A stretch of DNA of 8,879 bases from Escherichia coli (GTDB lineage Bacteria > Pseudomonadota > Gammaproteobacteria > Enterobacterales > Enterobacteriaceae). Position 1 is the stretch's first letter. Each line of letters opens with the position of its first letter. Both the position numbers and the translations under genes were made by a program. The DNA is taken from the NCBI RefSeq assembly GCF_003334785.1, contig NZ_QOWV01000035.1. The stretch is one strand, 5' to 3'. The notes beneath the pieces were generated by a model. The model saw nothing but the letters and a program-made list of their open reading frames with translations, did not search any database and was not told the origin of the DNA. Positions 8,414 to 8,879 of the stretch are shown here, one piece after another.

Positions 8414-8827
8414 TTATACAGGCCAGTTGATGGATCGATTGTTATCAATGATATCTTTATGAGTCGGTGTCTCACCCAGCTTACCGAAGCTGGCATAAAG
8501 TGAAGGCAGACGGGCCCGTCCTTCTCCCTTTTTCGCCAGAGGGAAAGCGCGAAGCATGGTGGCAGCCTCCCAGTCACAACAATAGGATGGTGTGCACGGC
8601 TGCTGACGCCATGATTCAGCGATAGAGCCGGAAAATACGGGGTCAAAGCCGGTATCATTAACCAGAGTCATCGTGACCTGTACTGCGGCTGGATGATCTC
8701 CTGCTACTGCAACTGCTAGGCGACCGCGGCTCCCTTCAGGTAGTCTGTTGTGGTCAACTAAAACTGGCCTCCGCGTTAGAGTTTTTCCAGTATCGGTTTT
8801 CTGATTCGTTTGGTGGTAACCCACCAT
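8414..8827 (-). CDS. Hypothetical protein, 137-aa ORF of unknown function; possibly the remnant of a gene disrupted by the adjacent IS-like end
   Basis: It is the only long ORF in the 1-kb right flank. It has an ATG start with an in-frame upstream stop and contains a Cys cluster ([14 protein letters not shown]). I do not recognise the family. Its first ~27 codons lie inside the IS911-like terminal sequence (8746 onward), which suggests the native 5' end may have been replaced. Confidence 0.3.
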
Positions 8828-8879
8828 TATATTCGTGCGGTCTTAGTGCGCTGTAATATCCAACGATATAGTCCGTTAT
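8746..8879 (+). mobile_element. Possible terminal inverted repeat and leader of an IS3-family (IS911-like) insertion sequence, continuing beyond the window
   Basis: TGTTGTGGTCAACTAAAACTGGCCTCCGCGTTAGAG (8746-8781) starts with TG and closely resembles the IS911 left repeat as I recall it (TGAAGTGGTCAACAAAAACTGGCCACCGAGTTAG), with about five mismatches. This is a memory-based comparison and was not searched. No transposase ORF begins within the window. Confidence 0.35.

Follow-up and report, generated by a model that had tools for sequence, protein, structure and literature searches.

What is the stretch of DNA that follows the fec operon in this Escherichia coli contig, and does it mark the edge of a mobile fec module? 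The window, as we call the whole 8,879-nucleotide stretch that was analysed, carries the ferric-citrate uptake genes fecIRABCDE on the plus strand at 311-7856, as placed by the open reading frame list and the RefSeq annotation of matching genomes. At its left edge lies the end of an IS1F-like element (1-74, minus strand, with the start of insA near 19). The first-pass annotation had placed an IS1 end there, and this holds: PGAP labels the gene an IS1-like element IS1F family transposase, and BLAST matches to IS1 copies end at position 74. Matching genomes carry the annotation of a 22-codon small ORF, ykiE, in the space that separates fecI from the IS1 end (106-174, minus strand). At the right edge, past fecE, the first-pass annotation had reported a terminal repeat at 8746-8879, resembling the left repeat of IS911 and originating either from a divergent IS3-family member or from a decayed end.

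The repeat itself, TGTTGTGGTCAACTAAAACTGGCCTCCGCGTTAGAG, occupies positions 8746-8781; it starts exactly at 8746 and its outer tip is TG (8746-8747). We searched the window with the subterminal 32-mer of the right repeat (IRR) of the IS911 family and found a single match, at 8750-8781 with 2 mismatches. There was no match in any of 200 dinucleotide-preserving shuffles of the window, so the repeat is real and not a chance resemblance. The published "exact sequence of IRR" of IS911 is TGAAGTGGTCAACAAAAACTGGCCACCGAGTTAGAG (oligonucleotide IRRa in Table 1 of Rousseau et al, 2010, PMC2909936), and it is identical to the IRR of one of the copies that we compared (L004). The window 36-mer agrees with it at 31 of 36 positions, the mismatches falling at positions 3, 4, 14, 25, and 29, so that the tip reads TGTT in place of TGAA; agreement with the IRR of an intact IS911-family copy (L005) is 32/36. 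In contrast, the left repeats (IRLs) of those IS911-type elements match at only 22-23 positions. The original description of the repeat as close to, but not identical with, IS911 was therefore sound, and the whole 134-bp segment 8746-8879 is 94% identical to intact IS911/ISEc52-family copies. The difference between the two sets of scores shows, however, that this is the right end and not, as first proposed, the left. The 36 bp at 8746-8781 is, judging from the repeat identities and the shuffle test, the IRR of an IS911-type (IS3 family) element on the minus strand. As expected of the IS3 family, inverted repeats of about 20-40 bp with TG...CA termini are found at the two ends of the fec-linked element: TG at 8746, and TGAAGTGGTTTAC… at the far end in two loci from related genomes (L001 and L003). 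These two 36-bp ends agree with each other at 23/36 positions, much as IRL and IRR of IS911 do.

The segment holds more than a repeat. Translation of the minus strand from 8879 to 8757 yields the last 41 codons of an IS3-family OrfB, followed by a stop codon at 8756-8754. This 3' end of orfB, the catalytic part of the transposase (8754-8879, minus strand), overlaps the IRR and runs on past the edge of the window. Both the coding sequence and its stop were overlooked in the first-pass annotation, although they lie within its own interval; they place the element on the minus strand with its genes reading towards the window. PGAP annotates a minus-strand IS3/ISEc52 family transposase pseudogene at this place in ATCC 25922, ATCC 11775, E2865, and K-12 W3110, and the 3' end of the pseudogene is the equivalent of window position 8754. 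When its frame is corrected, OrfB from these loci matches the IS3 family transposase model NF033516 with 308 bits (E = 7.5e-92; cut-off 160); OrfA scores 55 bits over the N-terminal portion of that model. The match marks OrfB as a DDE (rve) transposase of the IS3 family, the 41 amino acids encoded in the window being its C-terminus.

Many complete E. coli genomes match the window with 100% identity over its last 1030 bases (7850-8879), and in them the rest of orfB, an A6G slippery site, orfA, and the left repeat follow past 8879, all reading towards the window. Indeed, the IS3-family orfA and orfB with a -1 frameshift motif that the first-pass annotation had anticipated beyond its edge are present in every junction-sharing genome examined. 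With an IS30 insertion (described below) removed, the element is 1248 bp long and consists of the IRL TGAAGTGGTTTACTGAATTTGGCCACCTGAACAGAG, a 100-aa orfA, the A AAA AAG motif, orfB, and the IRR; in the E2865 fec-linked copy, which IS30 does not interrupt, it measures 1251 bp. The slippery site (TTAAAAAAGG, with orfB in the -1 frame) is thus seen in the related loci, past the window, and intact relatives carry a "programmed frameshift" annotation. For the source of the window itself, we infer the element past 8879 from genomes whose identity to the window covers the last 1030 bases only, and which differ among themselves in the presence or absence of IS30. Taken together with the features inside the window, the segment 8746-8879 is very probably the right end of a 1.25-kb minus-strand IS911-type insertion sequence beside the fec operon, made up of the IRR and the last 41 codons and stop of orfB.

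Several small features lie in or around the element. Just outside the IRL, the far-end terminal octamer stands twice in tandem (TGAAGTGG TGAAGTGG TTTAC…; L001 at about 9365-9385, L003 at 2993-3008). Between 7850 and 8879 we counted 5 terminator-like hairpins against 1.1 ± 0.9 in shuffles, among them those at 8204-8220 (minus strand) and 8811-8826 (plus strand, inside orfB); this excess is probably without significance. A gathering-threshold Rfam scan of the whole window returned no match.

Is the element alive? IS911 has 36-bp inverted repeats and a 100-aa OrfA, and it makes OrfAB by -1 frameshifting; OrfAB binds the subterminal part of the repeats and leaves the tips free for the catalytic domain (PMC2909936). 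In a live relative of the fec-linked element, OrfAB would accordingly be produced by -1 frameshifting at A AAA AAG, would bind the subterminal part of both 36-bp repeats, and would cut at the terminal CA-3' (TG-5'), and the element would move by a copy-out/paste-in route through a circle. The fec-linked copy would be unable to move itself in this way. All fec-linked copies examined have a 1-bp deletion in orfB, in the catalytic HSDQG region of the DDE core; aligning TTCCA-GGCGATCAAGG with TTCCACAGCGATCA… shows the frame broken at the HSDQG segment. In about a third of carriers IS30 splits the element as well. In ATCC 25922 and ATCC 11775 it is split by a 1221-bp IS30 flanked by a 2-bp GT duplication, 6 nt downstream of the slippery site, and this interrupted form occurs in 974 of the 2637 complete genomes that bear the junction. 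Copies interrupted by IS30 and uninterrupted copies carry the identical 1-bp deletion, so the element was dead before IS30 arrived. With its reading frame broken, the fec-linked IS911-type copy is dead, a pseudogene, which presumably cannot make OrfAB and whose IRR would now be functionally inert.

The IS30 copies have some peculiarities of their own. Those at L001 7812-9032, L010 8998-10218 (minus strand), and L007 5123-6343 (minus strand) sit at the identical nucleotide of the IS911-type element, and the IS30 on the Klebsiella plasmid (L010) is reversed relative to those on the E. coli chromosomes (L001 and L002). In K-12, the other flank of IS30 is a second IS3-family frameshift region (…TTAAAAAAAGCAAC), and the K-12 copy has undergone a further rearrangement near IS30 compared with the lineage of the window. 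These observations suggest either a hot spot for IS30 in the frameshift windows of IS3-family elements or recombination between IS30 copies. The E2865 copy has 3 extra bases (ACA) at the site where IS30 lies in other strains (L003 at about 3334-3336, compared with the L001 reconstruction). It is 98.7% identical to the IS30-excised reconstruction, though the 3' 134 bp are identical, a pattern that points to gene conversion between copies of the IS in the 5' part of the element.

The first-pass annotation had left a choice between a divergent family member and a decayed end. Both descriptions apply, and it is the choice between them that falls away: the orfB pseudogene is decayed, and the TGTT tip together with the T at position 14 is a variant of the lineage. 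A fragment of this lineage on plasmid pMS6192A-NDM ends in …GGTGGCCAGTTTTAGTTGACCACAACA against an unrelated flank, a fragment of a type I restriction gene. Since the TGTT/T14 end recurs in an unrelated flank, these changes are features of a sub-lineage that transposed and not only the result of decay. Only the fec-linked copy shows the change at position 25.

Use of this dead copy's ends by a transposase made elsewhere is conceivable from the sequence of the IRR, in which the terminal TG and the greater part of the binding region are preserved. The variant IRR and the intact IRL would then serve in trans the OrfAB of an active IS911, so that the element, or one-ended events carrying fec, would still be mobile. 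Intact IS911-family copies are found in many E. coli, the essential TG is retained, only 2-3 positions of the subterminal binding region are changed, and the pMS6192A-NDM end implies at least one transposition with the TGTT/T14 tip. We nevertheless consider continued mobility unlikely. The junction is invariant across 2637 genomes, which argues for plain inheritance; it has no target duplication; and the unit that has been transferred to plasmids ends at IS30/IS1, not at the IRR. In the same vein, the TGTT end, with at least two unrelated flanks, could represent a distinct unnamed IS911 sub-lineage whose ends may be usable in trans by a resident transposase. We rate this as quite improbable; if it were true, the "dead" fec-linked copy would help to move or rearrange the fec island. 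A consensus scan for an outward promoter leading from the IRR into the neighbouring gene remnant detected no site at the IRR, nor any enrichment of promoter-like sites. For the fec-linked copy, the reading that we prefer remains an inert fossil that is inherited with its surroundings.

The DNA on the other side of the tip shows that those surroundings have been rearranged. The tip abuts the 3' remnant of a gene for a NAD(P)-binding-domain protein (8414-8745, minus strand). Comparison of DNA and protein with Pantoea established the homology: the 108 aa encoded from 8740 to 8417 on the minus strand share 80% identity with residues 141-248 of a 248-aa protein encoded on a Pantoea agglomerans plasmid. 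The remnant is thus the 3' 43% of the gene, coding for the C-terminal 108 aa, and the 5' 57% is missing. For its last 85 codons, PGAP gives either a hypothetical protein or an NAD(P)-binding protein, and an NCBIfam scan of the 137-aa ORF that runs across the IS tip (8414-8827, minus strand) assigned no family. The likeness to a P. agglomerans megaplasmid protein is a hint as to the background from which the fec island was donated.

In four genomes we looked with tblastn for the rest of this gene on the other side of the IS, and did not find its N-terminal 140 aa. Nor do the flanks of the element show the 3-4 bp target duplication of the IS3 family: gtc (window 8743-8745) stands at one end and cca at the other. 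An ISEc52-labelled copy elsewhere is flanked by a CAG/CAG duplication. A simple insertion of the IS into the gene is rejected on these two grounds, the other half being absent from the four genomes and the 3-bp flanks being different. Instead, the truncated neighbour and the unequal flanks point to a rearrangement junction formed by deletion or recombination, probably one that the IS itself mediated. The missing target duplication fits such a later rearrangement and is no argument against membership of the family. The junction would be an old one, created by an IS-associated deletion or recombination, inherited since then, and occasionally moved to plasmids along with fec.

Given that the window stops at 8879, its own source could hold a solo decayed end, with only the terminal ~80-134 bp left and the rest replaced. 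Such a state does exist in strain ESDR8 (L013 2501-2581), where only 81 bp of the IS end are left by the fec flank. It is rare, however; in most junction-bearing genomes a query that joins the flank to 925 bp of the IS aligns over all or most of its length, and the window, with 134 bp or more in which the orfB frame is intact, exceeds the 81-bp stub. A solo end in the source of the window is therefore very unlikely. In ESDR8 the tip has changed to TATTGTGG, and the stub is directly abutted by a different IS3-family element with an annotated AL1L pseudoknot. Weakest of all, and barely credible, is the view that 8746-8781 is the IRL of a plus-strand element whose orfA and then orfB start past 8879 and read away from the window: the segment does open with TG and look like IS911 ends, and transposase genes do occur past 8879, but this reading is refuted by the repeat scores given above, by the OrfB C-terminus and stop encoded on the minus strand of 8879-8754, and by the position of orfA and the true IRL, which in all genomes examined lie at the far end, 1.25 kb off (2.5 kb with IS30). 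The right end of a minus-strand, inactivated element is the reading that we carry forward.

Which name this element should bear is a finer question. In ISfinder practice, isoforms share about 95% or higher nucleotide identity, or 98% or higher protein identity. The reconstructed element shares 95.6% identity with a full-length ISEc52-labelled copy, its closest relative away from fec, 94.4% with a full-length IS911-labelled copy, and 89.5% with a relative on pO157; the choice between an IS911 isoform and ISEc52 rests on PGAP labels, the published oligonucleotide, and these pairwise identities, which are borderline near 95%. With IS911 (IS3 family, IS3 group; Shigella dysenteriae and E. coli) it shares the 36-bp repeats, the TG tip, the 100-aa OrfA, the A6G site, and a DDE OrfB, and it departs from IS911 in the IRR mismatches described above and in its frameshifted orfB. 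In ATCC 25922 and W3110, PGAP uses the label ISEc52 for the pseudogene whose end corresponds to window 8754. The ISEc52-labelled full-length copy has an IRR identical to the published IRR of IS911, and the two names therefore stand for near-isoforms; what sets the fec-linked copy apart from that ISEc52-labelled copy is its tip and its inactivating deletion. The IS911-like element of pO157 (E. coli O157:H7) likewise has T at position 3, in both of its repeats (TGTAGTGG…), and its IRR differs at positions 4, 14, 25, and 30. It carries an annotated programmed frameshift, and so variation at the tip occurs in copies annotated as intact. The element is an IS911-type insertion sequence that the K-12 literature calls IS911/insO and PGAP the ISEc52 family.

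Does this end, then, define the boundary of the fec module, as the first-pass annotation had held? As a description of the chromosome, the claim holds loosely: fec is bracketed by IS1 and the IS911-type element, and the junction from fecE to the IS is conserved, being found in 2637 of 5426 complete E. coli genomes, about half. As a description of what moves, it does not, because on plasmids the transferred unit reaches further, to IS30/IS1. The conjugative IncF plasmid pCFS3292-2 has in common with the chromosome a block that begins with IS1, takes in fec, the remnant, and the IS911 fragment, and stops at IS30; there the fec block is bracketed by two copies of IS1 and the IS911 end is internal. 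A Klebsiella quasipneumoniae plasmid has only the tail of fecE, the remnant, the IS911 fragment, and IS30. Since the plasmid blocks extend past IS911 to IS30/IS1, the IS911 end is a passenger in the moving unit and not its active border. A composite transposon in which IS1 and IS911 together carry fec is likewise rejected: the flanking elements belong to different families (IS1 and IS3), and the internal position of the IS911 end on pCFS3292-2 speaks against it as well. On this plasmid (L011 2409-16280), the order is IS1-ykiE-fecIRABCDE-remnant-IS911 fragment, with added IS110-family and IS30 insertions, between two IS1 copies; this layout resembles an IS1 composite transposon, and it adjoins a sil/cus silver-copper resistance cluster.

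The fec-linked IS911 end was already known. It is annotated in E. coli K-12 within KpLE2 and described in PMC5379014: in MG1655, IS911 is "interrupted by the following IS30", and in RR1 only an uninterrupted IS911 and IS1 surround the fecIRABCDE operon in KpLE2 (see also PMC3032704). The K-12 copy, with the gene insO, occupies the equal position beside fecE and the truncated NAD(P)-binding remnant, in W3110 as analysed here and in MG1655 and RR1 according to PMC5379014. The result matters little beyond correct annotation, for which three corrections are useful: the repeat is a right end on the minus strand, part of orfB lies within the interval first reported, and the IS fragment is a passenger in the fec module. 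What this end marks is the place where the fec iron-uptake island, acquired horizontally, adjoins a fossil insertion sequence.
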